A DNA stretch of 64,000 bases from Antedon mediterranea. Taxonomy: Eukaryota > Animalia > Echinodermata. Positions within the stretch are counted from its first letter, which is position 1. Each line of letters begins with the position of its first letter. The position numbers and the translations under genes are program-made. Location of the stretch: the NCBI RefSeq assembly GCF_964355755.1, contig NC_092672.1:2976001-3040000 (forward strand), given 5' to 3'. The notes beneath the pieces are model-generated. The model ran no database searches. It was not told the origin of the DNA and saw only the letters and a list, made by a program, of their open reading frames with translations. Of the stretch, positions 39,259-59,166 are shown piece by piece.

Positions 39259-39609
39259 TAACACTGGTACACTTTTTATTAGATTAGAATCTATTTTAAG
39301 ATTGAGGGCGCTCTGTCTAAATTTTCGTATTTTATTATTGTGTCATCGATCATTTTGGAAAAACCACGAGCTCATCTCTCTCACCCTCAGGACTAGCTTT
39401 TTTGTAAGAAGTGCAGAAATCACAATTTATTAGCTTGCTTTATTACGTAGTTTTAAGTTTATCATTATGTATTTATTCAATCTGTTTCGGTTATCTTTAA
39501 TTAGAGCCAGTGCCTGACCTAGGTTGTCTTCCTCTTTAGCTTAGTTACCAGACTGTCACTCTCTGCGTACACACTACACTACCAGCCAGGAGAGCGGAGG
39601 TCAGGTAGG

Positions 39610-39929
39610 TAAAGAGACTGTTTATGTTTACTTATTAACCTAGGAGGACAATTAAGTCTCTTCGGTGTAACTACACACTCATCGTTTGTACTCACCTAAT
39701 CCTTTCTAGGCTGGTACGTGATGGGTATAGTTTGTGTCCTTCTTTGGTTGTGTCTTCGCTTCAAGAGATCGAGTTTTGCCTCTCGCACATTCAACGCCCG
39801 GGGCTGGTCGTGACGTATCTCGCCACTGGCCAGTCCCAGGGCCGGATTCGGGGGTTGAGTGCGCGTAGGCCCGGCGATTGGCTGTGACGTATAGATGACG
39901 TAACCAATAGCCAATCGCCAGGCACTACA
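39610..39929 (-). repeat. 3' LTR
   Basis: Base-for-base identical to 51600-51919 on visual comparison; reads TGTAGTG...CTCTTTA on the minus strand. Confidence 0.97.
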
Positions 39930-39950
39930 ATCCTCCTCGTTTTATTTTCT
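39930..39950 (-). other. Polypurine tract
   Basis: Minus strand AGAAAATAAACGAGGAGGAT directly abuts the TGT start of the 3' LTR. Confidence 0.75.
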
Positions 39951-40210: not shown

Positions 40211-41267
40211 CATGGTGGGTCCTCCACTCCTTCCTCTTCTTTCTTTTATTTTTTTTTTTTTTTTTATTTTTTTTTTTTTTAACATGTAACACAACGGGGG
40301 GCACAGCCCCAACAAGAACAGGATTTGAAAAACGGAACACCAGAACGTCAAGGTGGGGGAATTACCCCAACAATTTGAACATATGACAGCCAACAGGGGA
40401 CTAAAGAGTCCCGAATAAAAAATGTTGCCATAACAATCGAACAATGGGCAATACATACGAACAGTTGAAATAAAGAAACAAGAAAATCAAATCCCTTCAA
40501 GCCATGTGGCATAGGGTATACATCGGGTTGCTGCCCGGCACCGTGTTCCAGGGAACATTGGCACCTGACAGCCCCCCGGAAGAGAAAAAATCTGAGGAAC
40601 ACCGTTCTAGGGGTACAGAATTACAGATTTGAGAAAAGAAGGCACAAGCCTATGGGGATTGGCAAAAATTTAGCAAACAACAGTAAAATTTTGTTCTGGA
40701 ATTCCAGTATATAGGGCTGACTGTTTGCGTGTATACAAAATATTCTAATTAGATGAGAGAAATCGTCAAAAAGAGACCGCACTGACAATCGTAATTGAAA
40801 CAAGGGACTTACGGTCCCAGCTAAATAAGTAGAGGACATGTTGGACCTCAAATTTTGGGGTGGGAAGAGGATTTGCTCTTCGCCAACTTTTGGGCGTGCG
40901 GTGACTAAGGACAGACAATTGTCCTGGGGTACAAAAATGTTATACGCAAGTACACCAAGAAGGGGTGTACTGTATTCAAGTGATTTAGAACGGTGTGGTA
41001 TATAATAATCGTTTTGAAGAATTGAGTCCTGTTAAAGAATTGAGTTCTTTTACTCTCTTTTCATACTAACCGTAGCGCCCCTGGGCGGTGCGGCCAGTCA
41101 TGTTGATTTCATTGGTCCATTTTTTTTTTTTTTTTTCTTTTAAATGTGGTTCCCATACTAACCGTAGCGCCCCTGGGCGGTGCGGCCAGTGATGAAACTG
41201 TGTTGATTTCATTGGTCCAATTTTTTAATTTTTTTTTTTTTTTTTTTTTATATAGTCCAGTGGCACT

Positions 41268-42992
41268 TCAGGCGTCCAACTCCTCTGCGAGGGTCAGCTG
41301 CTCGATGCACACGCGGTGCATGCGGGCGGCCGCCTCTCGCAGGGCGCTGCTGGAGGATGACAAGGCTGCTGCTGCCAGTCGTTGGTTCGCAGTATACGCC
41401 TCTCTCAGCAGTCGGCGGGCTTCCTCATCTAAAGCTTCCGCTGCCCGCTGCGGTGTTGTGGAGGACTGTTGAGGGAGCTTCGGAGATCCCATACTAGCCG
41501 TAGCGCCCCTGGGCGGTGCGGCCAGTGATGAAGATTCCGGTGCCGGTTCCATTGGTCCTGGAGCTCTCGACGATGGCGGAGGGCATGAGGGCAGGCCTCC
41601 GTACTTTTCGTTGAGTTCATGAAGTCGTTTCGGGTTAGCCCTCATGGCCTCTGCCAGCAGTGGGCACAGACAGAAAGGGTGCAGCATCACCAGGGCGGTG
41701 ACCTGATTTCTGATGTCCCTTTCCATTGACGGCGCCTTCCAATTTACTGCCTGAGCTGTAAGCGTGAGTTGACGCAACCACTTGTTGCCCAGGCCGCAGG
41801 CTCCGGGCCTCAGGAAGTACTTTCTCAAAAAATCAAAAGCCTTCCTCAGAGTTGAGAGACCATCTGGAAGCAGGGGGATCAGTTCTTGAAGGTATCTCCA
41901 GGCTGTCCTCATCTTATGGTTGTCTTGATGGTGTACATACTTTGCCACAACCTCTGGAGCATGCACATTGAGGTGGTCCATTGCCGAGCCTTGCAGACCG
42001 CAAGCTGGCACTGGGCACGCATACCCCGTTCCCTTCTTTGCTGCGGGAGTGGCAGGGTGCCGCGAGAAATCTGATTGTTCTCCTGCTGACGGGTCCACGA
42101 CCTCCGCCGGAACGACGTAAGGTTTACGCCTTGATGATTTTGATCGGGGCGAAGGTTTAGTCCGCTCTGCCGCCCTGGCAGCAGGCCGACCCCTAGCGTC
42201 CCTTGATGACTTTGACCGGGCCGAAGGTTTAGTCCGCTCTGCCGCCCTGGCAGCAGGCCGACCCCTAGCGTCTCCGGACGGGTTCTTCAGCCTGAAGTCC
42301 TGACAAATAAAAGTTGTTTTGCTTGCCTCGTCTCTTAGGAAACGCGTCATGAGCTCCCCCACCGTCTCTGCCCTAGGCGGAAACGGATGGATAGAACAGA
42401 TGATGCGGTCCGGTCCGATTGTGGATACCACCTTCGATTGAAGCAGAACACCCTTCCTGGCTAGGCTTTGAATCTCACAGCGAGCATCCGACGAAAGGTC
42501 CGACCCAGGAGGCCGCGGAACGCCAGCCACCTCTATATTGGCACGAAACATCTCTGCATCCTCTGGTGATAAGGCCACCATACCATCGAACGCACCCCTG
42601 CCACTCACTCCCGAGATCCGCCGGATCCACAAGACTTGGCCCAGCGCGACTCGAGGCTGTGAAGGGGACAACATGGATGGTGATGGGGGGCGGAGAGGCG
42701 ACATCGGATCTTCACGCTCCATCTCCTTTTCTGCTTGCTGGGGGAACGACTCTGCCCCTGGGGGCAAGAGAAGCGCCGCCACAGCCGGTATGTCAGTGGG
42801 GACCGAGTCCTGCACTTCCCCATGGGGTCCGTGCCGGGGCTCGTCCTCGGTTGTACCTACCACTACCCCAGGGGGTAGTGGAGTGGTCGCCCTCTCGGAG
42901 GCCCGGGCAGGGGCCGGCAGAGAAGGGAACTCCCTCTCCACTAGCTCTGCCCAGTCCATTGGCGTCACAGCTTCTGAGTAACTCTTTTCCAT
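41268..42992 (-). CDS. Retrotransposon ORF3, unknown function (574 aa from ATG 42992; 588 aa from 43034)
   Basis: Long uninterrupted ORF after pol on the same strand. Pro-rich, 24-aa basic tandem duplication, CPVPAC-x8-HLNVH, C-terminal Ala/Arg/Glu helix. Confidence 0.8.
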   Translation of the reverse strand: MEKSYSEAVTPMDWAELVEREFPSLPAPARASERATTPLPPGVVVGTTEDEPRHGPHGEVQDSVPTDIPAVAALLLPPGAESFPQQAEKEMEREDPMSPLRPPSPSMLSPSQPRVALGQVLWIRRISGVSGRGAFDGMVALSPEDAEMFRANIEVAGVPRPPGSDLSSDARCEIQSLARKGVLLQSKVVSTIGPDRIICSIHPFPPRAETVGELMTRFLRDEASKTTFICQDFRLKNPSGDARGRPAARAAERTKPSARSKSSRDARGRPAARAAERTKPSPRSKSSRRKPYVVPAEVVDPSAGEQSDFSRHPATPAAKKGTGYACPVPACGLQGSAMDHLNVHAPEVVAKYVHHQDNHKMRTAWRYLQELIPLLPDGLSTLRKAFDFLRKYFLRPGACGLGNKWLRQLTLTAQAVNWKAPSMERDIRNQVTALVMLHPFCLCPLLAEAMRANPKRLHELNEKYGGLPSCPPPSSRAPGPMEPAPESSSLAAPPRGATASMGSPKLPQQSSTTPQRAAEALDEEARRLLREAYTANQRLAAAALSSSSSALREAAARMHRVCIEQLTLAEELDA

Positions 42993-43089
42993 ATTCGATC
43001 TGAAAGACATAATGAAAAGCACCTTTCCAATCATGGTGAATGTGAATTACAGTGTTAGTCAGCCCGGGGTGAGACGTTTGAATGCGGAT

Positions 43090-46000
43090 CTACTCGGCAC
43101 ACTTGGTACATTTAAATCGATCGATATCGATAGCTTCCGCTGGAGTAATGTTGACGCATGCTCCATGGTACCATTCACCGCACAGATCGCACTCGATCAT
43201 AAAACGCCCCTCCCATGGCTTCCTACAAGTACAGTAAATGCCGTCATCTTCGGCATCCCCGTCGGGGTCGGAATTCGTCAGATCAAGGTTGGTGATCCAA
43301 TTTGGCAAATCCCGATCCCGGCAGAGCTTCAGTTTATCGTGGTGGATTACAAATACTTTATTACGGAGGCGTACACGGAAGGCGTACGGGGCCAGCACCT
43401 CAGTGACTACCCCCGGACCCTTCCATGGCGCATTCAATTTCTTGTTTTTCCCCTTTATTTTGGTCTGGTCGAACACATAGACTTTGTCCCCAACTGCGTA
43501 TGTACGCTCTAGTAGCTTAAGGTCGTATTGATACTTATTGCGCTTTTGCATTGATTTTAGATGTGTTCTTGCAATATCGTGCGCTAACTTCATATTTTCT
43601 ACTAGGCCAGTGGTGTATGAATATGGATCAGTAATTGTTGTGCCCCCTGAAGAGCCGAACATGAGGTCGGGTGGTGTCGATACCTCCCTGCCCAGCATCA
43701 TCAGGTTTGGTGTAGATTGGGTACTTCGGCATACCGTGGCCCTAATTGCACTCGTTATCTGGGGCAGATATTTATCCCAGTCCTTTTGTTGTTTTCCCAC
43801 AAAACACCGGACCGCATTCATCACAGTCAGATTGTAACGTTCTACCTGACCGTTAGCTGAAGGACGGTACGGCGTGGTGTGGGTCTTATTAATGAGGAGA
43901 ATCTTGCAGAGCTCCCCGAAGAGATCGCTCTCAAAATTCGGACCCTGGTCCGAGTGCAATTGCAGCGGCATACCAAATCTGGAGAAGAATTCCCTTACCA
44001 GTACCTCGGCAGTCAATTGTGCAGTCTGCCGGGGTACCGGGTAGGCCTCTACCCACTTTGTAAATTGATCCACTACCATCAATACATACAGATTCCCACT
44101 ACTGGACTGAGGAAATGGTCCTGCAAAGTCTATGTGAACCCTTTCCATTGGGGCTCCCGAGTGGTAATTAATCTGTTCCGAGCGGCCTTTCTTATTCCCC
44201 CTCTTGTGGCTGTTACATATGGGACAGCCTATGACATATCTTTCGATATCCCCGGCCATCCCAAACCAGTAGTATCGTTGTTTAAGACGGAGCTTAGTCC
44301 GTTTGATACCTTGGTGGGCGGCCGATGGGAGATCATGATAAGCTTGCATTGTTGTTTTAATCAATGACTTCGGAAGAACAAGAAGGTCCTCCTCCCCCTG
44401 TTTATCTTGAATGAATAACACCCCGTCTCGCAAGCACATCCTTTCCTTACTCAACCAATAATGTTTTGTTGCCGGGCTAGTAGCGAAAAGCTCATTTGCC
44501 GAAGGCAGCGCGTCACCCTTAAACCAGAGTAACACGGGCCCCAGCTCCTGGTCTTTCCCCTGAGCCTCTTGGATTTCCTGGGTAGAGAAACCCCAATGAG
44601 ATTGCTCCGCCCTTTCCGTGGTTAGTTGATGAACATGTTGGGAGGGCAGGAAAGGCTGCGAGATAGGTTGATTTTGATGTGCGTGCACACCCGTCAGCGG
44701 AATGACGTCATCAACCTGGTCGATGAACGCCCCCCATTGCTGGTGCGCACGTACACAGTACTTACACCCCTTGCAAGGTAAATCAGATAATTTCACCCCA
44801 TGTTTGTAATGATTAGCCATTTCAGGTGCCCGTGACAATGCATCGGCATTGACATGTTTTTTACCAGGGCGGTGTTCTACTATCATTACATACTGGCTAA
44901 GTTCTTCTATCCAGCGGGCCAGTTGCCCTTGGGGTTCCTTGAACCTCAGAAGCCAAGTCAGGCTACTGTGGTCGGTGCGAACCTTAAATGGTTTACCCAG
45001 CAAGTAGTGTCTAAATTGACGTGTGAATTTCACAATCGCCAACAGTTCTTTACGGGTGGTACAGTAGCGTTGCTGCTCTGATGTTAATGCTAAACTAGCA
45101 TAAGCAATCACACGCTCCTGACCCCCTTGTAATTGGGACAATTCACCTCCGATTGCCTGATCTGATGCATCGGTATCAAGGACGAACATGTCATCAGGAT
45201 TCGGAAGTGACAAAACTGGTGGTTGTGTCAATTTAGATTTAATTGAGTGAAATGCATCTATTTGAGGTTTGTCCCATCGGAACTCCCCCTTCTTTGCAAC
45301 TGCATAAAGAGGTCTTGTTAATTCGGCAAAGTGGGGAATGAATGCCCTATGGTAATTTGCTAGGCCAAGGAAGCGTTGAGCCTCCTTGTAGTTCTTAAGA
45401 TCAGGCCACCCACACACTGCCGCGATATCGGTATCGGACATCTCGAGAGTGTTGCGGGAGACCATACGGCCCAGAAATTCCACTTTCCTCTGGAAAAATA
45501 GACATTTCTTTGGTTTTAGTTTCAGATTATATTGTCGGAACCGACCTAGGGCCTCCCTTAAGTTATTGCTGTGGTCTTCAAATGATTTGCCCAGGATAAC
45601 CACGTCGTCGAGGAAAGCCAGAGCAGTCTGCCAATTTAGACCACGCAAAACCATATTGATGACCCTAGAGAAGGTTGCCGGACTATTACACAGGCCAAAG
45701 GGCATTTTTACAAACTCGAACAGGCCATATTTGGTGACGAAAGCGGTCTTTTTGCGATCGTCGGCATTGAGGTTTATTTGCCAATAACCAGAAATGGCGT
45801 CCAATTTAGAGAACCATTGATTACCCGACAATGTGTCGAGGCAATCCTCTAAAATTGGTAATGGATATACATCCTTTACCGTGATGTTATTTAAAGCCCT
45901 ATAGTCTATGCAAAATCTGACGTTTCCATCCCTTTTCCGGACTAGGACTGGGGCGGAGGACCATTCAGAATTGGACGGCTGAATGATACCCCCCTCCAGC

Positions 46001-47016
46001 ATTTTATCCAGTTCTTTGCGTTCTTCATCGGCAAAGTGTAACGGGGTACGGCGAAGTCGGTGTCTCACTGGTGCTGCATCAGACGTATCTACCCGGTGAT
46101 CAATATTAGGGACCTCCCCAATATCGAATTGATCCCTGGCAAACACATCTGCGAACTCAGTAAGCATCTCCTTCACCACCCCTGCCTGATCTTCCGATAA
46201 ATTGGTAATAGAATTTTCATAAGTTGTACGCATGTGATGTGGCAATGCGTGTGTGGCCGGAGAGGTTTCCCCCGGATGGGTGAAAACTTCCCCAGCTACA
46301 CAGGATTCTATTTCAGATGCAAACCCAATTTCTAAACCTGCTTTGACAGTTACGTATTTGTTGGTTGTATTGACCATGCAGATCACAGGCGATTCACCTG
46401 CGGTGTGCACAGTTCTAGGAATTGTTAGGTTATTGTGGCCATGAGGTTCTACAATGTAGTCATGCAATTTGGTATCTAACTGACAGGAAACATAGGCTAT
46501 TGATGTAGGTGGTATCACACGCCGCTTGCATGTGATTATTCTGCAGCTAGAGGGCGTTGAGGGCGCCATACCATTTTGTATTAATGGGACAGCAACCCCA
46601 CCGACCTTTAACAGCATTTCGCCTATGTTGACATCTGCGTTTGTGCCCCTCATGAAATCCAAACCTAGTAGCATTTCGTCTTCAATCGGTGCAACATAGA
46701 CATAAGTGGGGTAGATGTTTGGCCCAATTTTGAGTTGCACCGGACCTATTTTTCGCCCTTCCATCGAACTACCCTTACCCGCCATGAATAATTTAATAGT
46801 ACCCACGGTGGGCGGAGTAGGGGTAATTGAATGGTATAAGCTATCAGATATAATAGATACAGTCGCTCCACAGTCGACAACAGCGTCAACTTTAACGGAT
46901 GCGACCGTAACTTTAGTGTAGAGTAATGAATTAGATTTCACTCGCTGTACAATAAGTGATTCAGTTGGGTCGCACTCTGGAGTGAACAATTTGGAGTCGA
47001 CCCCTAGTCGTTTAAA
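43090..47016 (-). CDS. pol: Pol polyprotein: protease, RT, RNase H, integrase, C-terminal PHD finger
   Basis: VVDCGAT protease; RFCIDYRALN, MPFGL, FLDD RT; LDTDAS/ELLAI/RTDH RNase H; H-H-C-C plus HIDFAGP, SDQG, VER integrase; C4HC3 PHD. The frame is open up to the slippery site at 47016. Confidence 0.97.
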   Translation of the reverse strand, partial: FKRLGVDSKLFTPECDPTESLIVQRVKSNSLLYTKVTVASVKVDAVVDCGATVSIISDSLYHSITPTPPTVGTIKLFMAGKGSSMEGRKIGPVQLKIGPNIYPTYVYVAPIEDEMLLGLDFMRGTNADVNIGEMLLKVGGVAVPLIQNGMAPSTPSSCRIITCKRRVIPPTSIAYVSCQLDTKLHDYIVEPHGHNNLTIPRTVHTAGESPVICMVNTTNKYVTVKAGLEIGFASEIESCVAGEVFTHPGETSPATHALPHHMRTTYENSITNLSEDQAGVVKEMLTEFADVFARDQFDIGEVPNIDHRVDTSDAAPVRHRLRRTPLHFADEERKELDKMLEGGIIQPSNSEWSSAPVLVRKRDGNVRFCIDYRALNNITVKDVYPLPILEDCLDTLSGNQWFSKLDAISGYWQINLNADDRKKTAFVTKYGLFEFVKMPFGLCNSPATFSRVINMVLRGLNWQTALAFLDDVVILGKSFEDHSNNLREALGRFRQYNLKLKPKKCLFFQRKVEFLGRMVSRNTLEMSDTDIAAVCGWPDLKNYKEAQRFLGLANYHRAFIPHFAELTRPLYAVAKKGEFRWDKPQIDAFHSIKSKLTQPPVLSLPNPDDMFVLDTDASDQAIGGELSQLQGGQERVIAYASLALTSEQQRYCTTRKELLAIVKFTRQFRHYLLGKPFKVRTDHSSLTWLLRFKEPQGQLARWIEELSQYVMIVEHRPGKKHVNADALSRAPEMANHYKHGVKLSDLPCKGCKYCVRAHQQWGAFIDQVDDVIPLTGVHAHQNQPISQPFLPSQHVHQLTTERAEQSHWGFSTQEIQEAQGKDQELGPVLLWFKGDALPSANELFATSPATKHYWLSKERMCLRDGVLFIQDKQGEEDLLVLPKSLIKTTMQAYHDLPSAAHQGIKRTKLRLKQRYYWFGMAGDIERYVIGCPICNSHKRGNKKGRSEQINYHSGAPMERVHIDFAGPFPQSSSGNLYVLMVVDQFTKWVEAYPVPRQTAQLTAEVLVREFFSRFGMPLQLHSDQGPNFESDLFGELCKILLINKTHTTPYRPSANGQVERYNLTVMNAVRCFVGKQQKDWDKYLPQITSAIRATVCRSTQSTPNLMMLGREVSTPPDLMFGSSGGTTITDPYSYTTGLVENMKLAHDIARTHLKSMQKRNKYQYDLKLLERTYAVGDKVYVFDQTKIKGKNKKLNAPWKGPGVVTEVLAPYAFRVRLRNKVFVIHHDKLKLCRDRDLPNWITNLDLTNSDPDGDAEDDGIYCTCRKPWEGRFMIECDLCGEWYHGACVNITPAEAIDIDRFKCTKCAE
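46962..47016 (-). promoter_or_regulatory. -1 programmed ribosomal frameshift signal
   Basis: U UUA AAC at 47016-47010 in the gag frame, 6-nt spacer, then stem GGGUCG-ACUC...GAGU-G-CGACCC; pol is in the -1 frame. Confidence 0.88.
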
Positions 47017-49214
47017 GAGTCTTCTTCATCTACATCGAATTCATGTTCGACTAGATTTAGCCTTCTGTTTTGCTTGAAGTTTGATTTATTATTATGTGGT
47101 CTATTTGAATTATTGGGAGTCTTGGTGGGGCATTCCCTTGCGAAATGACCCTCCTCACCGCAGGAGAAACAGCCGGCCCCTCTCTCTGGAGATCTACGTC
47201 GAGCCGGGGATGGTTGCCTCTCACGCGGCCTATCAAGGCGATCTAATACCTTGTCTAATTTCGAACAAAGGGCCGAGACCTGTTCTTGCAATTCGTTTAT
47301 TCGGGTGTTGGAAGCATGAACAGATTCCCGGTCCAGAGAACGATCTCGATATCGGGCACCATGGGGCGATTGCGGACGTGCAAAACGCACCACGCGCCGT
47401 TTATCCTCCCTTTTAGTTATTTCATTAATCCGCCCAAAGTCACCCTCAGCCTGCAAGTTGCACTCCTGAACACTAGGTTCTGGGTACACCTGGCAGACAG
47501 TGGATGGCTGGGGTGGAGTTTCTGGCAGATGTGTAGTTGGTGTTGAGGCCAATTTAGGTGTTATTATTGGTTCATCGTTGACACTCTGGTGCCATTCGAT
47601 AAGTCGGATAGCTTCAGGAATTGTTTTGGGGCGCTGCAGGCTAGCAAATTTGCCGCTTGGCCTATCAACACACCCACGACAAAACTTTAAAGCTGCCATT
47701 TCTTGGATCCAATGATTGGTGGCCCCTTCACCCCCTTGCGTTCTATACGCCTTGGCTGCGGCTTTAAGCACTCTGGCTCCCCACTCACGTAGGGACTCCA
47801 GGTCTTTTTGGAAAAGTTTTTCGAATTTTGCAGCCAGAAGAGATTGGTCTTGGGCGGAGCCAAAGTATTCGTTAAAACTAACGATGAGCCTCTCGTAAGA
47901 GACTGCACTACCATGCAAGGTCAGCAACGTTTGTAAGTACGCGGCTGCCTGGCCCCTCATGCTCATGTGGAAAGCTTCCTTGCGTTCGGCCCTAGACCAT
48001 CCATTAATCTGGGAAAATCCCTCAAATCTATCATGGAATATTCCCCAGTCGTCATCCCCACCGTGGAATTCTAGATGTTTTTGCGGCCTGAAAGGCTGTT
48101 GACCCCGATGATCACCGCGGCCCCACTCGTCCCGCAAGGGTAGGCGGTCAAGCCTATTCCTCTCGGGGCGAGGAGGTCGAAGGAATCGTCCGAGATCGTG
48201 CTCATAATTTTGATGATCATTTCTCCCACCATAATCACCCATCTGATAATTATCTCGGTTGATGTTTTGTAAGGGTAGTGGTGGTTGATTATAATTCATT
48301 CCAGTGGCGGAAGGATGACGAGGACGATAGCAATCGTTGTCCAGGTACCCCCGGTTGTAATTATCACCTCCGTACCCATGGTCACCTTGAGGGTAGGAAG
48401 GTCGAGTTCCCCATGAGGGGTCTCGGTTCTTATTTTGAGCAGTAGGGCGTTGAGGTAGGCCATGTTCAACAGCGGCATCCCCCCGTCCTACGTTGGTGTT
48501 ACAATTTATTTCTTTTTCTCGATCCGAATGATCGGGACGGTAGCCGTGTTCTACAGCTGGATAGCCATAAAAACCAGCCCCAACCCGGTCATAAGGATGG
48601 GCGTCTTCGTTTCCCCCAGCTCCCGTGCGAGCACGTGTACTAGGAGACGGTGAAGTATCCACCATGTGCACTCCAGAACGATCAAGAGATCTACCCCGAC
48701 CAGCAGCAACAGGGCCGCTGGTCGCAGTGTCACCCCTTCTCATTGGAGTACGCGGAAAAACCTCATCGCCACCCATATCGCCCGCCCGGTGGTTGTTGTG
48801 GAGCGTACGGGAATCTAGGTTGCTAGGCACGCTTGCCTGGTCTGCATAGCGTTGATCGCCTCCGGCCCCCGGATGCAAGGATGGGTCGCTCGGCAAAGGT
48901 GGTACGGGGGTGCAGGCCTGCTCGTGAGCTTGATCGTGCTCTCCCGAACCGTTACCCACATCTCCATACCCCCCAGTCGGCGGTCCCATTCTCACATACC
49001 GAGAGTTAATGGCATAGTCCATGTTAAAGGACAAAAAGTCGAACGAATTATCGCCGACTGCCCGTGCTAGATCTTGTGGGTTTGTGATATTCCCATAATT
49101 ATCCCTGTAGGCCCTGATTTTCTCGGCCAAGGGTGGGGGTAAACCCTGTGGGAAATCTTTCGCCCTACGGACAAAGTTGATCTTAAAAGGTATTGGTTCG
49201 ATGGTTTTTGGCAT
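47004..49214 (-). CDS. gag: Gag, 736 aa
   Basis: Capsid-like region (DWGIFHDRFE...NGWSRAER), coiled coil, zinc knuckle CFSCGEEGHFAREC; lies upstream of pol. Confidence 0.93.
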   Translation of the reverse strand: MPKTIEPIPFKINFVRRAKDFPQGLPPPLAEKIRAYRDNYGNITNPQDLARAVGDNSFDFLSFNMDYAINSRYVRMGPPTGGYGDVGNGSGEHDQAHEQACTPVPPLPSDPSLHPGAGGDQRYADQASVPSNLDSRTLHNNHRAGDMGGDEVFPRTPMRRGDTATSGPVAAGRGRSLDRSGVHMVDTSPSPSTRARTGAGGNEDAHPYDRVGAGFYGYPAVEHGYRPDHSDREKEINCNTNVGRGDAAVEHGLPQRPTAQNKNRDPSWGTRPSYPQGDHGYGGDNYNRGYLDNDCYRPRHPSATGMNYNQPPLPLQNINRDNYQMGDYGGRNDHQNYEHDLGRFLRPPRPERNRLDRLPLRDEWGRGDHRGQQPFRPQKHLEFHGGDDDWGIFHDRFEGFSQINGWSRAERKEAFHMSMRGQAAAYLQTLLTLHGSAVSYERLIVSFNEYFGSAQDQSLLAAKFEKLFQKDLESLREWGARVLKAAAKAYRTQGGEGATNHWIQEMAALKFCRGCVDRPSGKFASLQRPKTIPEAIRLIEWHQSVNDEPIITPKLASTPTTHLPETPPQPSTVCQVYPEPSVQECNLQAEGDFGRINEITKREDKRRVVRFARPQSPHGARYRDRSLDRESVHASNTRINELQEQVSALCSKLDKVLDRLDRPRERQPSPARRRSPERGAGCFSCGEEGHFARECPTKTPNNSNRPHNNKSNFKQNRRLNLVEHEFDVDEEDSLND

Positions 49215-51587
49215 CCCTGGAAGATAAGAAAAATCCTTCCCAATTAGTTTTATTCTTCATTTATAGGCCTGGTAAGTACTCCCGTCCCCCCGTGCATCCA
49301 ACCAGCGAGCGGAGGTAGCATCGGTCTGATGCTGTTTCGATGATTATTTTTGCGTCTCACTCGTTGGGTGCCCAGAGAGAACAGGGGTAGTACCAGCCCA
49401 ATACACACCTAGCGCTAATCACAGTTCAATTAAATATAATTACAATGTAAGGGTTACCTCCCCCCATCACAAAAATTTTAGCTAATTATGTGTACATATA
49501 ATGATTTATGGGCACTCACATTATGCCACGAAAATAAAATAAAAGGACTACACAAATAGTACAGGTTAATGAAAAGAATATATGATATACAAGGCATGTG
49601 ATAAGAGATACAGATCGTTACCAGATGTTATTGTAGCCAAGTGTCAATGACATGGACAAAACAAAACATTACAGATTACACACTGTGACAGTTAAGAATC
49701 GAAATTCATACAAGACATGTTGAAAAACAATCATGATAAGAAAAAGATCATACAAGAACATGCGAAAATAAATGAGACAAGACACGGAAAAAATTTTATT
49801 TTGAAAGAAAAAGGCATACAAGACATATAAAATAATTCTAGGCAAAAACCTAAGATAATCAATAAATAAATAAATATGCCTAAAGTATCAAAAAATAATA
49901 TTCGAACCAAAAATCAATAAATATAATAATAAAATAAATATAGGTACCGGCCTAGCCTGTACACTAAAAAATATTTCAATTTTAAAAAATCTATGCTAAA
50001 TAAAGACATTCTAAAATAATAACAATAAACAGGAATAATTAAGCCTATGCATAATTACCCAAAAAATAAAAATAATTCATGAAAATAATAGGTAGGAAAT
50101 TCCACTAGAATAACCACCTAATAAATAAAACATCGTCTAACTAAAACAATAAAAATTTACTAATAATTTTACGTCGAAAATAGTTCAATAAAAATAAAAT
50201 AAATCAATCGGAAAATAACTTAATTCCAAGCAATCAATATACACGAATGAATAAATAAATAAATAATAATCCTAATGTCATTTCCATCCAAGTGGGAGAG
50301 ACAAAATAACTATAATCTAACTACCCCGCGATAGCACAGGCCAGAAAATTCCAGCCCGTCTATCGTCAGGCCATAAATCAATCCAGACAATACACAGACC
50401 GGGAGACGAGCTCTCAGTTCTGCATAAAACTAAAATCTAAAAATAGTAAGGAGTATCCCTATATTATTCTACCAATCAGAATACAGTACTCACCTAACGT
50501 CATCATCGAAAGTCGTAAACAACTGTTGACCTCGTTGATGCAAGCAGCTATCCGCGAGGGTAGCAAGCGAATGCGTGCTCGCGATTGGCTAGCGATGAAT
50601 CACACGTGAGAAGACTGATAGGCAGAAAGTTGTTGTTTGACAAGGCGAACCGCTCAGGAATGGCGGCATTCTCAAAGCAACGGCAGTGTAGATAACTACT
50701 GTTTAACCCCGTTGTTCGTGAACACAAGTCGCCAAACCAGAGTCGGATTACCCTAACAAGCAACACCCTCCAATAACCTCGTTCTGTTGGTCGTAGGTTA
50801 TGGTAGTGTAATTTAAGGATTAAAAATAATGATAATAAAAATCGTGGATTTGAATAAGCTAATAAATAATCAAAATACGCGAGAGATGCCAACCACAAAA
50901 AATGGCGTCACTCACTAAAAAATTGTTTCGAAATTAAATTTAATATTTTTCCTACAAATTATAAATTTGCTAATTATTATGTTTTGTACATTTTTCCAAT
51001 AATATTCTGAATCACGGGCCAGACATATTCATTGTTCTGGAATCACGGGCCCAGTGCGTTAAACATACAATAAAAAACGCTGTTCCATGTTCACGTGCAT
51101 GGTATGTACGTAGCTTCGGCTAGGTCACGGGCCCAGGGCAGGGCCCAGCCACATCGCTACACACACTAATATCTTTTTCGGATCATTAGGAAATAAAAAA
51201 TGTACCTATCCGAAGAATCAGAGTACAAATGGGTCCCCCATAAATATACTGTCTGACAATTCGGATTACGGCACAAATCCAAGACGGAGAAATAATAATA
51301 TAATTTACTATAAACAACTCCCGACGGCTCGACCCCATCGATCGGACGAAACCTGCAGGCACGACAGCAGATTTCGGCCGCGAGACGGAGACGAGTCGTT
51401 GACGAGGTGGGAGATGGGTAGTGGGACGTGCTGCCCAGCAAACACAGAGGTCGTTCCTCCAGCATTGCCTCTGGGCAACACCACAGGGCGAAACGAGATG
51501 TGCGAACTAGAACAACACTCCTACCTTCCCAAACAGCTACACGCGGTTGACAGTGTCCCCCGCCGAGGCAAAAGGAACACCAGTTTA

Positions 51588-51598
51588 CCTCGTCGCCA
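51588..51598 (-). other. Primer binding site, probably tRNA-Ser(GCT)
   Basis: TGGCGACGAGG 1-2 nt inside the 5' LTR; complementary to the ...CCUCGUCGCCA 3' end I recall for metazoan tRNA-Ser(GCU). Confidence 0.75.
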
Positions 51599-51599
51599 T

Positions 51600-51919
51600 T
51601 AAAGAGACTGTTTATGTTTACTTATTAACCTAGGAGGACAATTAAGTCTCTTCGGTGTAACTACACACTCATCGTTTGTACTCACCTAATCCTTTCTAGG
51701 CTGGTACGTGATGGGTATAGTTTGTGTCCTTCTTTGGTTGTGTCTTCGCTTCAAGAGATCGAGTTTTGCCTCTCGCACATTCAACGCCCGGGGCTGGTCG
51801 TGACGTATCTCGCCACTGGCCAGTCCCAGGGCCGGATTCGGGGGTTGAGTGCGCGTAGGCCCGGCGATTGGCTGTGACGTATAGATGACGTAACCAATAG
51901 CCAATCGCCAGGCACTACA
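51600..51919 (-). repeat. 5' LTR with CCAAT boxes and CRE half-sites
   Basis: Identical to the 3' LTR; three CCAAT/ATTGG and three ACGTCA motifs in its first ~120 nt. Confidence 0.97.
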
Positions 51920-52539
51920 TAGGTGTGTGGAGAGAGGTTTACTATTATCTAGGGTAAGCCTATGCCTAGGCCTAGGTCTACTGGCACTAGCACTATCAAG
52001 TTTTTTCGCCCTTATTATCTAGGCCTATAATGTGATTATCAAACGCTATTACCTGTATCCAATTAAACTTAATTAATTCATGTAATAACTAATATATTGC
52101 TGATTGTAGATACCAGCATAATCAAAATGCATACCATGGTCCATACCACTTCACTTGCACAATATAAGTACTAAAATGTGCATTTATGTATTTGAAAAGG
52201 GATGCAATTTAAGCAGTGGCTGATCTGTGAAGTACAAAATAAGTATGTAGGCCTATGTATGTAATTGTTACCTGTCTTGTCTTATTTTGTAATGCAACCA
52301 AATTATCTAAGTTACCGCTCTGTATGTTATATTTTTTATACCGAAATAGATAATTTAATTAATTAAATAACTTCAGATTGTGCTGTTTCGAAGAAAAAAG
52401 GCAATCAAATAATATATACAGACGGTAGTATGCCTCAATAAATAGTGGCCTAAATAATAGTAGCCTAGTTCTGAATCAGAAACATAAAATATGTATATTC
52501 TATTTTCTCACAGATATCTGATTTTACAATAAAGTAAAG

Positions 52540-55500
52540 ATGGGCCTCGAAGATGGTCTATTGTCCGATGAGGGCGGGTTTGAATTTAGTGATCAGGATA
52601 TCCGCAAGTGTAAGTATTATAGTGAAATCCAGATTTTGGATGAATCTGACCACACATTTTTTACGTTAATTTCATTAATCTATTTAGTTCTGACATTTTG
52701 AAACAATTTTTTTTGGACTGTTTTAGGTTTGACATATTTCCATAAAAATTAAACAAAAACAGATAATGATATAATAATAAATACTTTGAAACATCTCTTT
52801 TACTTTGCAAATATTTTTTCATTTACAGTATAACTGCTTGCCACCTTCCAGTTTCCAACCCTTAACATATGAAATTATTAATACATAAACTATTAAAGTA
52901 AATATTCTTTGATATTGTTTAACCAGATATCAGGTTGATATTGATACCTTAATTTTAGTTTCTGAGTAAAAGATAAGTAAAAAGAAATCTAGGAATGATA
53001 ATAATTTTCTTTTACAAGAAATTAAATGAATGGGAAAATTCTTACTATGATTTAATGTTGTAAAACGTAGAACCTCAAATATAATGGAAAGCCTACATTA
53101 AGCTCTTTCTACACTATCAAACTAGTTTGACAAAAAAAGTGCCCAAATATGGTAGTGATATGCCCAAATATGGTAGTGATATGCCCAAATATGGTAGTGA
53201 TATGCCCAAATATGGTAGTGATATGCCCAAATATGGTAGTGATATGCCCAAATATGGTAGTGATATGCCCAAATATGGTAGTGATATGCCCAAATATGGT
53301 AGTGATAAGCCCAAATATGGTAGTGGTATGCCCAAATATGGTAGTGGTATGCCCAAATATGGTAGTGATATGCCCAAATATGGTAGTGATATGATATCAT
53401 CATGTCCATATCTCTATCTGCACATAATTTCTCTGAAATTGCAATTATTCTGTAGTCAGATTTTACTAACAAATTTTACAAAATCTGATGTGCCCATATG
53501 TGGACAAGATGATGTCATATCACTACCACATTTGCGAATATCACTACCATATTTGGAAATATCACTACCATATTTGGGCACATCACACCTTTTTTGTCAA
53601 ACTAGTTTGATAGTGTAGACAGAGCTTTAAGGAATAGTCAACATATCTGCAAAGGATAAATTCATGGTTTAATCATGGAGGTTTACGGGATGTGAAAAAA
53701 ATAAAAAAATAGTGGGATCGATAGATGAAATACAATTACTATTTTTTGCAGCATTTATCCGTAAGGTGTATGGCATCCTTTGTGCTCAACTTCTGCTTAC
53801 TATTGGTATTATGAGCATCTTTACATTCAGGCAAGTCAATACAGTTTATAATAATAATAAATAATGAATGATGTATTAATAATAATATTAATTGGTAAAC
53901 GCTTTACTAAAAATATAATTGATATTGTTTGATTCTACAGTGAAGGTGTGAAAAAATATGCATTTGAAAATTCTTGGCCTTTCTGGGTAGCTTTGTGAGT
54001 ATATTTAAATTACCCAATTTTATTATTTTTTGATTATTAATTAGTTTTTTGCAGGTTGTGGTAGCTTTTACAAATGTCTTATATAACTCAAAATATTTAC
54101 TATGTTTATTAAAAATTAATTTTTAAAATTAAAAATACAGTAGTATTTTACATACTTGACGCCATTCAAACATTTAAAGCTCTGTCCACATTATCAAACT
54201 ATTTGACAAAAATAGTGTGATGTGCCCAAATATGGTAGTGATATGACCAAATATTGTAGTGATATGACATGATGATGTGCCCAAATATGGTAGTGATATG
54301 ACCAAATATGGTAGTGATATGACATCATCATGTCCATATATGGGCACATCATCATTTTATGTCACATAAATGTTGATAGTGCAGACAGAGCTTTAAGGAG
54401 AAGAGATTTACTTCATTACTTCAGTACAGTACGTTTGTTTATTGGATATGTATGTTACTTGTATATTTTTTTATATGTACAATATATATTGAGACATTAT
54501 TTCTCGAATGCTGTATATGATGTTTTAAATTAACTTGGTGCTGGAAAACTAGTGGTACTGTACTTTTTTACTAGTGGTACTGTACTTTCTTACTAGTGGT
54601 ACTGTACTTTTTTACTAGTGGTACTGTACTTTCTTACTAGTGGTACTGTACTTTTTACTAGTGGTACTGTACTTTTTACTAGTGGTACTGTACTTTTTTA
54701 CTAGTGGTACTGTACTTTCTTACTAGTGGTACTGTACTTTCTTACTAGTGGTACTGTACTTTCTTACTAGTGGTACTGTACTTTTTTACTAGTGGTACTG
54801 TACTTTCTTACTAGTGGTACTGTACTTTTTTACTAGTGGTACTGTACTTTCTTACTAGTGGTACTGTACTTTCTTACTAGTGGTACTGTACTTTTTTACT
54901 AGTGGTACTGTACTTTTTTACTAGTGGTACTGTACTTTTTTACTAGTGGTACTGTACTTTCTTACTAGTGGTACTGTACTTTTTTACTAGTGGTACTGTA
55001 CTTTTTTACTAGTGGTACTGTACTTTTTTACTAGTGGTACTGTACTTTTTTACTAGTGGTACTGTACTTTTTACTAGTGGTACTGTACTTTTTTACTAGT
55101 GGTACTGTACTTTTTTACTAGTGGTACTGTACTTTCTTACTAGTGGTACTGTACTTTTTACTAGTGGTACTGTACTTTTTACTAGTGGTACTGTACTTTT
55201 TTACTAGTGGTACTGTACTTTTTTACTAGTGGTACTGTACTTTCTTACTAGTGGTACTGTACTTTCTTACTAGTGGTACTGTACTTTTTACTAGTGGTAC
55301 TGTACTTTTTTACTAGTGGTACTGTACTTTTTTACTAGTGGTACTGTACTTTTTACTAGTGGTACTGTACTTTCTTACTAGTGGTACTGTACTTTTTTAC
55401 TAGTGGTACTGTACTTTCTTACTAGTGGTACTGTACTTTTTTACTAGTGGTACTGTACTTTTTTACTAGTGGTACTGTACTTTTTTACTAGTGGTACTGT

Positions 55501-58500
55501 ACTTTCTTACTAGTGGTACTGTACTTTTTTACTAGTGGTACTGTACTTTTTTACTAGTGGTACTGTACTTTCTTACTAGTGGTACTGTACTTTTTTACTA
55601 GTGGTACTGTACTTTCTTACTAGTGGTACTGTACTTTCTTACTAGTGGTACTGTACTTTTTTACTAGTGGTACTGTACTTTTTACTAGTGGTACTGTACT
55701 TTTTTACTAGTGGTACTGTACTTTTTTACTAGTGGTACTGTACTTTCTTACTAGTGGTACTGTACTTTTTTACTAGTGGTACTGTACTTTTTTACTAGTG
55801 GTACTGTACTTTCTTACTAGTGGTACTGTACTTTCTTACTAGTGGTACTGTACTTTTTTACTAGTGGTACTGTACTTTTTTACTAGTGGTACTGTACTTT
55901 CTTACTAGTGGTACTGTACTTTTTTACTAGTGGTACTGTACTTTCTTACTAGTGGTACTGTACTTTTTTACTAGTGGTACTGTACTTTTTTACTAGTGGT
56001 ACTGTACTTTCTTACTAGTGGTACTGTACTTTTTTACTAGTGGTACTGTACTTTCTTACTAGTGGTACTGTACTTTCTTACTAGTGGTACTGTACTTTTT
56101 ACTAGTGGTACTGTACTTTTTTACTAGTGGTACTGTACTTTCTTACTAGTGGTACTGTACTTTTTTACTAGTGGTACTGTACTTTCTTACTAGTGGTACT
56201 GTACTTTTTTACTAGTGGTACTGTACTTTCTTACTAGTGGTACTGTACTTTTTTACTAGACCACAGGCAAAAAAAATATTTGGTAGCCCAGAGTGATTGA
56301 ATTACTAGATATTAGTGTGCCAGACTAGACTAGATTTGCTAATAGAATAATTTGCTTATTTTAACTTTACAGCGCCGTTACGTTTGTAATTATCATTGTA
56401 TTGTCATGTTGTCCTGATACCAGAAGAACCTCTCCTATTAACATAATTTTATTGGGGATATTTGTAAGTATAGTGTGTCAAATTGTACATATCTGTCGGT
56501 CTGTATTTTTTCCTGTGTTCTCGTAAAATTTGCATGAATTTGGTACATTATTTGAAAAGAGTTGGAGATTAATTTAAGGTGTGCTTGATAGGTGCTGCAC
56601 TGCTGCCTGGTAAATAGACTGCCTAAGGTGCTGCACTGCTGCCTGGTAAATAAGCGGCCTAAGGTGCTGCACTGCTGCCTGGTAAATAGACGGCCTAAGG
56701 TGCTGCACTGTTGGCTGCCTGGTAAATGGAAGGCCTAATCCGAATTTCAAATTATTCAATTTCAGTCAAACATAAGGATGATTCTACAATTACACTTTCA
56801 TTTAAACATAAAACATTATTGCCTGTCAATTTTGGTTGATTTTTAACCCACCTCTTATTTCTTTTTATGTATTAATTTATTTGTACTATTTTGATAGTGT
56901 TTCTTTTAAATAAATGGTTCAGTATTGTTTATAGCTTGCCGGTTAAGACCCACAGTGAGGAGCGAACCAAAAATTCACCTGTGTCATGCTTGAGTGCACA
57001 GTAAAACACCAGGGGCCGGATTTATCAAACTTGCTTAGCAAAAAAATCGTCTTAACTTTGCCTTAAATCCTTGATTTTGCCTAAGTCAGATTTATCAATA
57101 TATCTAAGCAAAAAAATTTGCTTAATTTTGTCTTAAATCTAAGACGAACAGCACCCTGCCTTAAGATGAAAAATTTCGTCTTATCTCATTTCTGCAACAG
57201 AAACATTCTTTTTTGACAACGCGAGCGCGCTAGGCCGGAACATTGAACATTCGGAAAGGCTACGCTAGTGCGTTTTACGCTGTACTACGGACGCTAAAAT
57301 AATGATATCGATCTTCATAAAGATGGCCTAGAAATTGGACGAGCAAAACTAATATTTTCGGGATAGGTACGACCCAATTGACTAGCTTTTAGAAAACTGT
57401 ATCGGCTGCCAAGGGTCGCTGTCATTGATAAAAATAAATAAATGTTGATTTGATTTAAGTTTAGAGCGAATGATTTTCGTATGTATTTCCGACTGTTGTG
57501 CTCTTTCTCTATTTCAAGTAATAAAAACAATAGTAGCCAGAATACGCCCTCTCTTGTTGGGAGTGAAAATACTCTTTTCTGCTAAGACATTGCTAAGACG
57601 GTTTGATAAATAAGATTAAGTTATTTGCTTAAGCACTTCTTAAATATTTCAGCTTAAGCAAAAATATAAGCAAATATTGATAAATGCCAACCCAGTAAAA
57701 TTAAAAACACCAGACTACAATTAACTGTAGTAGACCTGTGTTATTTTAATGTTATCTTTTCCCATCAGACGGTTTGTGAGGGCGTTCTTCTTGGAATGGC
57801 GTGTGCAACGTTTGACACGACCACTGTGTTGATAGCTGTCGGCATTACAGCTGTAAGTTGCAAGATGTCATTTCTTTATTGTGAATTGTTAACGATATTT
57901 GATAGAGGAACAAATATTATAAGGCAGCCGTAGTGTGTGGTTTCAGGGAGTTTACATTGATCAAGTTATCACATCTGAAAGTGTATACGAAAATGCTGTT
58001 GCAAGAATTAAACTGATTTTCTGTGTCATAAAAGAGGGTTAAAAGATTAATAGCGATGCTTCACTGAACCATACAAGTCAGTAATGATATTTTAGATAAT
58101 TAGTTTTTTGAACTTTTCGTCCTACAGCTGTATTTCTGCCATAGTTTTTAATATTCAATTTTATTCACAGGCACTCGTTTTGGCCCTCACACTGTTTGCG
58201 TTCCAGACGAAGGTAAGATGCATTTTTAATGGTGTTCATATTTTTTGGATGATAAACAGAAACAACAAAATTTCAACTGGAATTTTATTTATATTTTACT
58301 CCATTACGCTATAAAGAATTGGTATTACTGAAATTTAAATTAAAAGTGTTGTGTTTTTTATAGGTTGATTTTACAGTATGCAATGGAATCATGTTTGTCG
58401 CCCTCATTTGCCTGATCATTTTTGGACTTTTTGCGATTATATTTCAGAGTAAGGTATGTATTAAATAATTGTGTACTAAAAGTAATTTTATTTTTTAAGC

Positions 58501-59166
58501 AGGAATGTAAATAGTGTTTTCTCCATTCCTAAGCAGACTGGCTGATTTTAGGATTTTTTACACCCACCCTTAACTTTTGGTCACGTACCTGCTAGACTTC
58601 TCAGGTTTTATCTCTATTATGCTCCCTATACAAAAATATAATACAATTTCTTTATTTATAGGTTTTGGATATTCTGTATGCAAGTCTTGGCGCTTTGGTT
58701 TTTGGTATTGTAAGTATAGCTGACATAGTTTTTTCAAAAGTGAAAAGTTTTCTTATTTTTATATATACTGTATATATGTTAAGTGTTTGTATTAAGGGTA
58801 TATTTTTGTTGAGACCCAACAAAATGTCTTCTGTTAAACCATATATGTTTGTTTCCCCTGTAACATCATATCCTAATAAAGGTGTCCCAAAGTAGGAGTT
58901 TTACTGTAGTTTAATCATGTGTTAGAACTGCAGATGAAAAGCATTTATTATTAATTAAACATTTATTGAGGTTGTTGTTATATTCATTGACTTTTTCCTA
59001 ATTTTATTTTCAGTACATTGTGATAGACACGCAGCTTATGATGGGAGGTAGTCACAAGTACTCGCTGTCTCCGGAAGAGTACATATTTGCTGCCCTCAAC
59101 CTTTACCTTGACATCATCAATTTGTTCCTATATGTGCTCATGCTTGTTAACAGTGCACGCAATTAG
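52540..59166 (+). CDS. TMBIM/Bax-inhibitor-1 family protein, lifeguard-like, 9 coding exons, 236 aa
   Basis: Exons 52540-52609, 53752-53830 (GC donor), 53941-53994, 56373-56463, 57769-57852, 58171-58212, 58364-58453, 58662-58709, 59014-59166; total 711 nt in frame. Motifs FSDQDIRKSFIRKVYGIL, LFAFQTKVDFT, DTQLMMGG, SPEEYIFAALNLYLDIINLF. Not visible in the ORF track. Confidence 0.93.
53101..53626. mobile_element. MITE family B with an internal 21-bp minisatellite expansion
   Basis: TIR agctctttctacactatcaaactagtttgacaaaaa / tttttgtcaaactagtttgatagtgtagacagagct, TTA TSD; (gcccaaatatggtagtgatat) x12 at 53141-53392. Confidence 0.9.
54178..54392. mobile_element. MITE family B
   Basis: agctctgtccacattatcaa...ttgatagtgcagacagagct with TAA/TTA flanks. 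Confidence 0.8.
54548..56259. repeat. 1.7-kb minisatellite, 21-22-bp unit, roughly 78 copies, in a TMBIM intron
   Basis: ACTAGTGGTACTGTAC followed by TTTTTT, TTTTT or TTTCTT. Confidence 0.98.
56588..56737. repeat. 36-bp tandem repeat x4
   Basis: aggtgctgcactgctgcctggtaaatagacggccta. Confidence 0.9.
57010..57695. mobile_element. Probable non-autonomous DNA element
   Basis: Imperfect ends caggggccggatttatcaa / ttgataaatgccaacccag with many subterminal cttaa/ctaag motifs; no clear TSD. Confidence 0.55.

Follow-up and report, generated by a model that had tools for sequence, protein, structure and literature searches.

A young Ty3/gypsy element with a third open reading frame

The window, the whole 64,000-nucleotide stretch of Antedon mediterranea DNA that was analysed, contains a retrotransposon on its minus strand. 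Its two 320-bp LTRs (TG...TA), at 51600..51919 (5′) and 39610..39929 (3′), are identical and are adjoined by a 4-bp target duplication (51920-51923 and 39606-39609). The sequence directly 3′ of the 5′ LTR is the predicted primer-binding site (PBS; 51588..51598), presumably a match to a serine tRNA, and the polypurine tract (39931..39950) has an AATAAA inside its A-rich part. The gag frame (47004..49214) encodes 736 aa with a zinc knuckle, a capsid-like PNMA match and a weak N-terminal helix-hairpin-helix match; a word-indexed search returned nothing for Gag, and a HMMER search matched the capsid/knuckle half only. A slippery heptamer (47010..47016), in phase with gag, predicts a −1 frameshift into the pol frame (43090..47025), and a hairpin downstream of the heptamer was not significant (z = −0.67). 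The pol frame carries a protease motif (recognized by eye), then RT, RNase H and integrase (by Pfam) with a C-terminal PHD finger, which is the domain order of Ty3/gypsy (Metaviridae) elements. Both LTRs, the PBS, the polypurine tract and the target duplication are all present, and the element is an intact, young and recently inserted Ty3/gypsy retrotransposon; it is called young because the LTRs are identical and an empty-site allele is seen in DNA contigs (joint 39571>51920).

Downstream of pol lies ORF3 (41268..42992; 574 aa). It matches no Pfam family and has no usable match in the ESM Atlas, and the only homologue found is the ORF3 of a sister family. Its middle domain (zinc-finger/helical) is weakly common with the TatD-bearing ORF3s of relatives, scoring above all 600 shuffles, but by Pfam the TatD nuclease of those relatives is absent from the Antedon protein. 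With no Pfam family, ORF3 is not the F-type envelope glycoprotein that would mark an errantivirus, and no likeness to CERV, or other homology hinting at a Rev-like export role, was found. The end of ORF3 and the 3′ UTR contain three copies of a ∼45-nt hairpin-forming unit (41062..41558, minus strand), which belong to local duplications with A-runs. The first-pass annotation had suggested this unit as an export element. The suggestion gains no support: the unit has no Rfam match to E = 1 and folding z-scores of −1.1 to −2.4, it would occur in all transcripts of the element, and DNA variants exist without 40984-41516. Scans of viral contigs gave nothing useful.

Predicted splice sites abut the starts of gag and ORF3

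Four predicted splice sites were considered, all on the minus strand, and the letters and coordinates that the first-pass annotation had given for the acceptors and donors all agree with that strand. The first donor (51678..51689; GT at 51685-84) does lie inside the 5′ LTR as had been claimed, 87 nt before the PBS, and the 3′ LTR carries a second copy of it (GT at 39695). The second donor (50486..50497; GT at 50493-92) has the same AG/GTGAGT consensus and the same 12-mer, a shared word of a length that arose in 19 of 500 shuffles. The gag acceptor (49217..49249) comprises a branch-point-like motif 33 nt before the exon, a pyrimidine tract and the AG at 49218-17; the exon would run from 49216, with the gag ATG at 49214, 2 nt after the acceptor. 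The ORF3 acceptor (43000..43060) has branch-point-like motifs 61 or 36 nt before the exon, a pyrimidine tract and the AG at 43001-00, giving an exon from 42999 and an ATG at 42992. Two in-frame ATGs (43034, 43010) upstream of the ORF3 start lie within this pyrimidine tract.

Sites were scored with rough weight matrices that were not trained on this host. By these scores the ORF3 acceptor ranks first and the gag acceptor second among the 673 sense AGs of the element, and three AG/GTGAGT sites share first rank among its 656 GTs. When the 218 ATGs of the element are ranked by the best acceptor within 20 nt, the ORF3 and gag starts come first and second, and the chance of this under random placement is 2/(218 × 217), or ∼4 × 10−5. 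For AGGTGAGT, 2 occurrences were observed against 0.17 expected, with at least 2 in 4 of 500 shuffles. Acceptor strength alone is unexceptional, since 0.37% of 5,186 AGs in the host flanks score as high, and on the antisense strand of the element two acceptors score higher and one donor slightly higher. Thus, it is the placement of the sites, and not their strength, that goes beyond chance. A resemblance between the two acceptors beyond consensus was modest, with 4 of 6,555 other AG 40-mers reaching the same score or a higher one, and is given no weight. The best acceptor before pol is weak, at rank 24 of 673.

The LTR donor and the ORF3 acceptor are conserved across the clade

In a FastTree tree of 31 Pol sequences the Antedon element is sister, with support 1.0, to the rest of a clade marked by a PHD finger on the integrase and a TatD-bearing ORF3; one fragment (L016) is misplaced in this tree. 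Beyond the Pol grouping, the element shares with the clade the PHD finger at the integrase end and a helix-hairpin-helix-like Gag start. The relatives occur as sister pairs, so that the counts given below overstate independence.

All eight relatives with a readable LTR-PBS junction have a donor 14-58 nt before the PBS. This donor is the best of the whole contig in four of the eight (Fisher P = 5 × 10−7, uncorrected for kinship), and a comparable score is reached within 100 nt after the PBS in only one. The LTRs themselves barely align, the best pair scoring just above shuffles. The ORF3 ATG is among the top 5% of ATGs for an upstream acceptor in 14 of 18 PHD-type relatives, and the gag ATG reaches this level in none of the 9 PHD-type relatives tested and in 1 of 17 relatives overall. 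The LTR donor and the ORF3 acceptor are therefore conserved across the clade, and the gag acceptor is family-specific. Candidate gag acceptors do occur 96-247 nt upstream in long-leader relatives (strong in L086, middling in L080, weak in L081 and L087), and L082 has a strong candidate followed by one ATG, in each case in AT-rich DNA.

The LTR donor is more paired than with shuffled flanks in seven of nine LTRs (combined P = 0.02; Antedon LTR alone, P = 0.10). The Antedon LTR has no clear TATA box. [quoted passage not shown] The only poly(A) hexamers of the Antedon LTR are variants, 17-23 nt before the LTR end, and no hexamer is consistently found downstream of the donor in seven relatives.

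For ORF3, the public databases offer a further indication. The NCBI/UniRef protein record starts at 42992, passing over the two in-frame ATGs further upstream, and the databases have no entry for the longer frame that opens at 43034; a start at 42992 would follow from an annotated exon whose first base comes right after the ORF3 acceptor. Readthrough into ORF3 is ruled out by its different frame and by a stop at the head of the ORF3 frame. Because the LTR donor and the ORF3 acceptor are found clade-wide and the protein record starts just after the acceptor, ORF3 is very probably made from a spliced LTR-to-ORF3 message.

The leader and the expression of gag

Between the PBS and gag lies a leader of 2,384 nt with 38 ATGs, the last of them 45 nt before gag. 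Sense ATGs are not significantly depleted (observed/expected 0.80, P = 0.09). The gag start at 49214 is the homologous one, as relatives L003, L005 and L035 have the same N-terminal match. Splicing from the LTR donor to the gag acceptor would remove a predicted intron of 2,469 nt (49217..51685, minus strand) containing the PBS and 40 ATGs. The gag acceptor is the best of 90 AGs in the leader. Of the seven relatives with a whole leader, by contrast, six have a sense ATG observed/expected ratio of 0-0.49, and these six lack an acceptor at the start of gag. A spliced gag-pol message fits these features, since the leader has so many ATGs and no significant depletion of them, and in the Antedon family we give it about an even chance.

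The first-pass annotation had also described a leader in which U-rich, intron-like tracts alternate with GC-richer blocks. The alternation is real (GC of 0.18-0.35 against 0.45-0.64 in 100-nt windows), but exons and GC-rich blocks do not coincide, and a single block, the one that reaches 50494, stops at a donor. Nor does U-richness discriminate, for the leaders of relatives that lack a gag acceptor are AT-rich too. Its central claim, that gag-pol and ORF3 are both translated from spliced mRNAs lacking the PBS, is well supported for ORF3 by conservation and by the public protein start; for gag-pol it is plausible in this family only and is not conserved. Loss of the PBS does not follow for the junction 50494>49216, which removes only DNA downstream of it.

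Five sequencing runs were listed as containing the stretch, none of them on record as RNA. Among the contig joints listed for four runs (15 of 17; for run X1 alone, 12) none falls at the predicted splice sites. Contigs of run X1 cover the leader and flank and have most of their deletion joints in common with the DNA-like runs, so that this result speaks neither for nor against splicing. Likewise, no intron-less DNA copy appeared among the contig joints listed, in contigs that drop rare variants.

Weighing the possible messages

The reading that we favour, with a probability of roughly 0.55, is that the LTR donor upstream of the PBS is joined to the ORF3 acceptor and, less surely, to the gag acceptor, giving messages that lack the PBS. 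Transcription would start upstream of the LTR donor. The short LTR exon, joined to 42999, would in all likelihood give ORF3, and the same exon joined to 49216 could, at even odds, give Gag and frameshifted Gag-Pol mainly from a spliced message. Unspliced RNA might then, with the same evenly balanced chance, serve mainly as genome, and the messages without a PBS could not serve as templates for reverse transcription. Some RNA might perhaps escape splicing because the donor is partly paired in a hairpin. A stronger form of this reading would have every protein, Gag and Gag-Pol included, come from messages with the PBS spliced out, and the unspliced RNA act purely as genome, never translated and packaged in trans; the donor in the LTR would be an old clade-wide device for ORF3, reused for gag once the leader had reached 2.4 kb. 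We hold this form tentatively, and rather doubt it.

The LTR donor could instead serve ORF3 alone. Gag and Gag-Pol would then be translated from genomic RNA that has not been spliced, through internal entry, shunting or reinitiation, and the acceptor at gag would be of minor use or there by chance. The lack of conservation of the gag acceptor points this way, as does the frequency with which acceptors of such strength occur among host AGs (0.37%). L088 is a counter-example: its leader of 1,465 nt holds 30 ATGs and shows no depletion of them, yet the 69 nt immediately preceding gag contain no AG, and such an ATG-rich leader need therefore not be spliced. Precedents are also reported: foamy virus has a donor in R and yet translates Gag from RNA that is not spliced (PMC2761275), the gag-pol RNA of Cer1 appears unspliced (PMC3315495), and Drosophila MDG1-group elements, which have ORFs in long leaders, show no splicing in long reads (10.1101/2025.03.14.642691). 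The foamy virus and MDG1-group cases weigh against spliced gag-pol. However, the Antedon leader, with its 38 upstream ATGs over 2.4 kb, goes far beyond the 445-nt leader of foamy virus, and its best acceptor, which includes a branch-point-like motif at −33, stops 2 nt short of the gag ATG. We consider exclusive use of unspliced RNA for gag unlikely, though a serious contender.

An internal promoter in the leader is less probable again. Its transcript would have a short first exon that contains two in-frame ATGs, runs up to 50494 and is spliced to the gag acceptor, and the LTR donor would be left to ORF3. The second donor repeats not only the 12-mer of the LTR donor but also, ∼95 nt upstream at 50590, the 10-mer CCAAT box of the LTR; the stretch from one donor to the other lacks a strong acceptor (best 2.5) that could mark out an inner exon; and internal promoters are reported for the env of Tor elements (PMC4402516). 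Splicing would bring the ATGs just before the second donor (50506, 50503) into the frame of gag and not into that of ORF3, although such a fit has a one-in-three chance, and no equally strong leader donor was found in the seven whole-leader relatives (best 4.1). Least probable by far is that the sites, lying in an AT-rich leader, resemble splice sites but go unused, or that the acceptors take a trans-spliced leader and not the LTR exon. In Cer1 the acceptor before the initiator ATG is reported to take SL1 (PMC3315495), and high acceptor scores arise easily in T-rich DNA. A cis donor conserved across the clade in LTRs that barely align, together with a conserved ORF3 acceptor, speaks against both forms of this idea, and we know of no trans-splicing in echinoderms.

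Relation to known systems and significance

Retroviruses and LTR retrotransposons are described as normally giving a single unspliced RNA two roles, that of genome and that of message for gag-pol (PMC10309623), and an LTR-internal donor has been termed peculiar to foamy viruses among retroviruses (PMC3694450). As reported, foamy viruses have their major donor in the R region of the LTR, upstream of the PBS and in both LTRs, express downstream genes from spliced PBS-less messages and control access to the donor through RNA structure (PMC3694450, PMC5035957, PMC2761275, PMC3185757); their Gag comes from unspliced RNA by shunting and their Pol from its own spliced message. The Antedon element differs in being Ty3/gypsy, in its predicted −1 frameshift joining pol to gag, in having an acceptor at the gag start and in having no env. 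A separate spliced message for Pol is not indicated, given the in-phase slippery heptamer at the gag end and the poor rank of the best pre-pol acceptor.

Errantiviruses, Tor3a and Athila (10.1101/2023.08.03.551782, PMC4402516, PMC7197481) are reported to have an acceptor just before a third ORF, located after pol, and a subgenomic message from the 5′ LTR promoter, as proposed here. Their donors are described at positions before, at or within gag and often give the start codon or a peptide, whereas the Antedon element has its donor inside the LTR, and its ORF3, which does not resemble env, brings an ATG of its own. Cer1 of C. elegans and CERV (PMC3315495, PMC10309623) are similar, according to these accounts, in being Ty3/gypsy, in a consensus acceptor before an initiator ATG and in a spliced accessory protein from a post-pol ORF, and Cer1 and the Antedon element would have the same need to export unspliced RNA. 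Apart from the trans-splicing and apparently unspliced gag-pol of Cer1, CERV differs in reportedly having exons in common with Gag. In the Ty1/copia element BARE1 (PMC3735527) the translated RNA is likewise reported not to be reverse-transcribable and to be separate from the packaged RNA; the BARE pools are set apart by start site, cap and poly(A), and in-ORF splicing yields Gag only, whereas in the Antedon element removal of the PBS by splicing would keep the pools apart. In the literature covered, which lay outside most subscription journals and repeat databases, no Ty3/gypsy element was found whose donor lies within the LTR or whose gag-pol message is spliced in the leader.

As far as the predicted sites go, the Antedon case combines subgenomic splicing of the env type with a donor placed as in foamy viruses, and the LTR-internal donor is here a conserved trait of a marine-invertebrate gypsy clade. 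Should ORF3 alone be spliced, this would be a modest variant of env-type expression. If gag-pol is spliced as well, message and genome would be fully uncoupled by one splicing choice, and genome selection, the export of intron-containing RNA and the mobilisation of defective copies would become testable with three junction primers.

The retrotransposon and its reading frames

The window carries a complete Ty3/gypsy retrotransposon on its minus strand (51919-39610). Its two LTRs of 320 bp are identical, a 4-bp duplication lies on both sides, and the empty site is present in DNA contigs from two runs; the insertion is therefore young and polymorphic. The gag frame (49214-47004, minus strand) is joined to pol by an in-phase slippery heptamer, so that passage by −1 frameshifting is predicted. 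The last domain of pol, at the C-terminus of the integrase, is a PHD finger (43090-43230), common to the clade and possibly a chromatin-targeting module where a chromodomain would sit; in a Pol tree of 31 sequences the element is sister to the PHD-bearing group. The Gag N-terminus (49214-49060) resembles a helix-hairpin-helix domain (a weak Pfam HHH_3 match), as in the related loci L003, L005, L035 and L080-L088. Because the same weak match opens Gag in the three relatives scanned, the ATG at 49214 is taken as the true gag start.

ORF3 (42992-41268, minus strand) gave no match in a Pfam scan, and its sole homologue in a word-indexed search was a protein recorded for the crinoid Antedon mediterranea. 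The first 40 residues (42992-42873) are identical to the database protein P0002 and the remainder is 38% alike, and DNA contigs diverge from the window's sequence at 42866-42873, within ORF3; these two boundaries suggest that sister families swapped the body of ORF3 and kept a common start. ORF3 of relatives (L001, L002, L003, L005, L035, L080-L090) ends in a TatD nuclease domain, identified by Pfam in five of the seven first-set ORF3 pieces scanned and by motif in L080-L090. By this comparison TatD was lost or replaced in the window's family. Among the matches listed, no paper had TatD in an LTR element in its title.

Several other features were seen. In eight elements a NATAAA word stands immediately before the purine tract (39940-39946 in the window; PPTs of L002, L003, L080-L083 and L085). 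It may belong to the tract, or it may serve as a poly(A) signal yielding an R-less, translation-only RNA. The 5′ leader holds a stop-free frame of 151 codons (51621-51166) with an ATG at 51465 (99 codons). Tandem arrays with units of 14-36 nt lie at 53077-56720, 59068-59632 and 62454-62713, some with inverted ends resembling non-autonomous DNA transposons.

Predicted splice sites are distinguished by their placement

The first-pass annotation had placed donors at 51685, in the LTR, and at 50493, and acceptors directly before gag and ORF3; each was confirmed in the sequence. Sites were scored with rough weight matrices built on metazoan frequencies rather than trained on the host. The ORF3 acceptor ranked first and the gag acceptor second among 673 sense AGs, and the two donors shared first place with the 3′ LTR copy among 656 GTs. 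When 218 ATGs were ranked by acceptors within 20 nt, the two best were those of the ORF3 and gag starts, and branch-point-like motifs accompany both. Acceptor scores this high occur at 0.37% of 5,186 host AGs, and the antisense strand, owing to A-runs, reaches higher ones; it is the placement of the sites that is rare, not their score.

A very stable inverted repeat (z −7.3) takes up the opening 65 nt of the LTR (51855-51919); it is built of CCAAT boxes in opposed orientation with CRE-like half sites between them. A contig from sequencing run X1 matches just a 31-nt block around the donor (51661-51691) and rejoins at 51790, which suggests a diverged LTR subfamily keeping the donor block.

The LTR donor and ORF3 acceptor in relatives

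Relatives were host-derived copies of the clade from scans of metagenome and bacterial-genome contigs (79 and 67 loci). Two bacterial genome bins labelled Sedimenticola (L080-L099 and more) contain dozens of intact animal retrotransposon contigs, which are host contamination of the reference collection. In all eight relatives whose LTR-PBS junction can be read (L003, L080-L083, L086-L088; the remaining clade loci stop short of it), the 100 nt preceding the PBS contain a donor. These donors, 14-58 nt from the PBS with scores of 2.7-7.3, are the contig's best in 4/8 and rank among the top 5% of windows in 6/8. The LTRs barely align, and since the eight include three sister pairs, they represent about five independent lineages.

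The ORF3 start was defined as the first ATG in frame downstream of the pol stop, and the frameshifted L090 was excluded; ranked for an acceptor within 20 nt, this ATG was in the top 5% of the locus's own ATGs at 14 of 18 PHD-type loci. The exceptions are L009 and L093, where a weak site lies 3 nt upstream of the ATG; L015, a decayed locus in which the start was picked by eye; and L081. In L081 an acceptor precedes the third in-frame ATG (rank 7/222), which corresponds to the start in the sister locus L080, an ATG skipping like that in the window. Five loci outside the PHD group gave ranks of 1/195, 3/44, 12/171, 14/169 and none.

No run catalogued as RNA was found to contain the element. In the public protein record ORF3 begins at 42992; the longer frame that would open at 43034 is absent from records, although the ATG there has A at −3. 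Two in-frame ATGs passed over by the annotation fall inside the acceptor tract, and the annotated start is an indirect hint of an exon beginning at 42999. Our main reading, with a probability of roughly 0.85, is that the LTR exon spliced to 42999 would be the ORF3 message, in old, clade-wide use.

Whether gag is also spliced

Gag-pol, like ORF3, had been proposed to come from spliced mRNAs. The ORF3 half is supported by a donor and acceptor kept across the clade, but the gag half does not extend to relatives: an acceptor ranking in the top 5% precedes the gag ATG in 0/9 PHD-type relatives and 1/17 overall. The leaders of L003 and L083 are short and ATG-free, and the long ones of L080, L081, L082 and L086 have sense ATG observed/expected ratios of 0.27-0.49, with antisense ratios at 0.82-1.02. 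Both patterns are consistent with unspliced RNA being scanned. The window has the longest leader (2,384 nt, 38 ATGs, ratio 0.80, P 0.09), in which the highest-scoring AG lies 2 nt upstream of the gag ATG. The L088 leader (1,465 nt) is undepleted in ATG and its final 69 nt before gag lack AG, a counter-example to the splicing of ATG-rich leaders; that of L087, known in two pieces, is intermediate. Splicing from the LTR to 49216 probably gets some use in the window's family; that it is the main gag-pol route we regard as an even bet, and a family-specific prediction.

The claim that such messages lack the PBS would hold for the LTR donor joined to 49216; the second donor (50493), used on LTR-started RNA, leaves in the PBS and 14 leader ATGs. 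It carries the LTR donor's 12-mer, the CCAAT 10-mer of the LTR recurs upstream of it, and two gag-frame ATGs come just before it, which suggests that it may instead be fed by an internal promoter in the leader.

Under LTR-started splicing, transcription from the 5′ LTR would yield a first exon that is short and holds no more than a single weak ATG. L088 has a TATA box and initiator 145-169 nt before its own donor; the window's LTR has CCAAT and CRE-like boxes only. Joined to 42999, this exon would give the ORF3 message; joined to 49216 in the window's family, it would shed 40 ATGs and the PBS, giving a Gag/Gag-Pol message unable to be primed and leaving the genome role to unspliced RNA. RNA folding predicts partial pairing of the LTR donor (region z −3.3; compared with shuffled flanks, P is 0.10 for this LTR and 0.02 across nine LTRs), a weak hint that pairing may let some RNA escape splicing. 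Every element that splices its ORF3 message must export unspliced RNA. Nothing connects the repeated hairpin, earlier put forward as a possible export element, to this step, and ORF3 itself, by analogy with CERV, would be an equal candidate.

Relation to known systems

Deltaretroviruses also have an LTR donor. Foamy viruses, in the cited passages, have theirs in R, upstream of the PBS as here, but translate Gag from unspliced RNA, unlike the spliced gag proposed here (PMC3694450, PMC5035957, PMC3185757, PMC2761275, PMC7828637). Within the material cited, fly errantiviruses, Tor3a and Athila as a rule express ORF3/env from spliced messages (10.1101/2023.08.03.551782, PMC4402516, PMC7197481); Cer1 has an acceptor before the start codon, a spliced export protein and unspliced gag-pol RNA (PMC3315495, PMC10309623); plant pararetroviruses splice from donors in the leader (PMC5902531); BARE1 keeps translation and copying pools separate (PMC3735527); long ORF-bearing leaders of MDG1 elements can remain unspliced (10.1101/2025.03.14.642691); and spliced gag is described for Copia only (10.1101/2024.04.02.587720). 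Judged from sequence, the LTR-internal donor with an ORF3 acceptor is conserved in this marine-invertebrate gypsy clade, and the layout would constitute a new form of env-type splicing.
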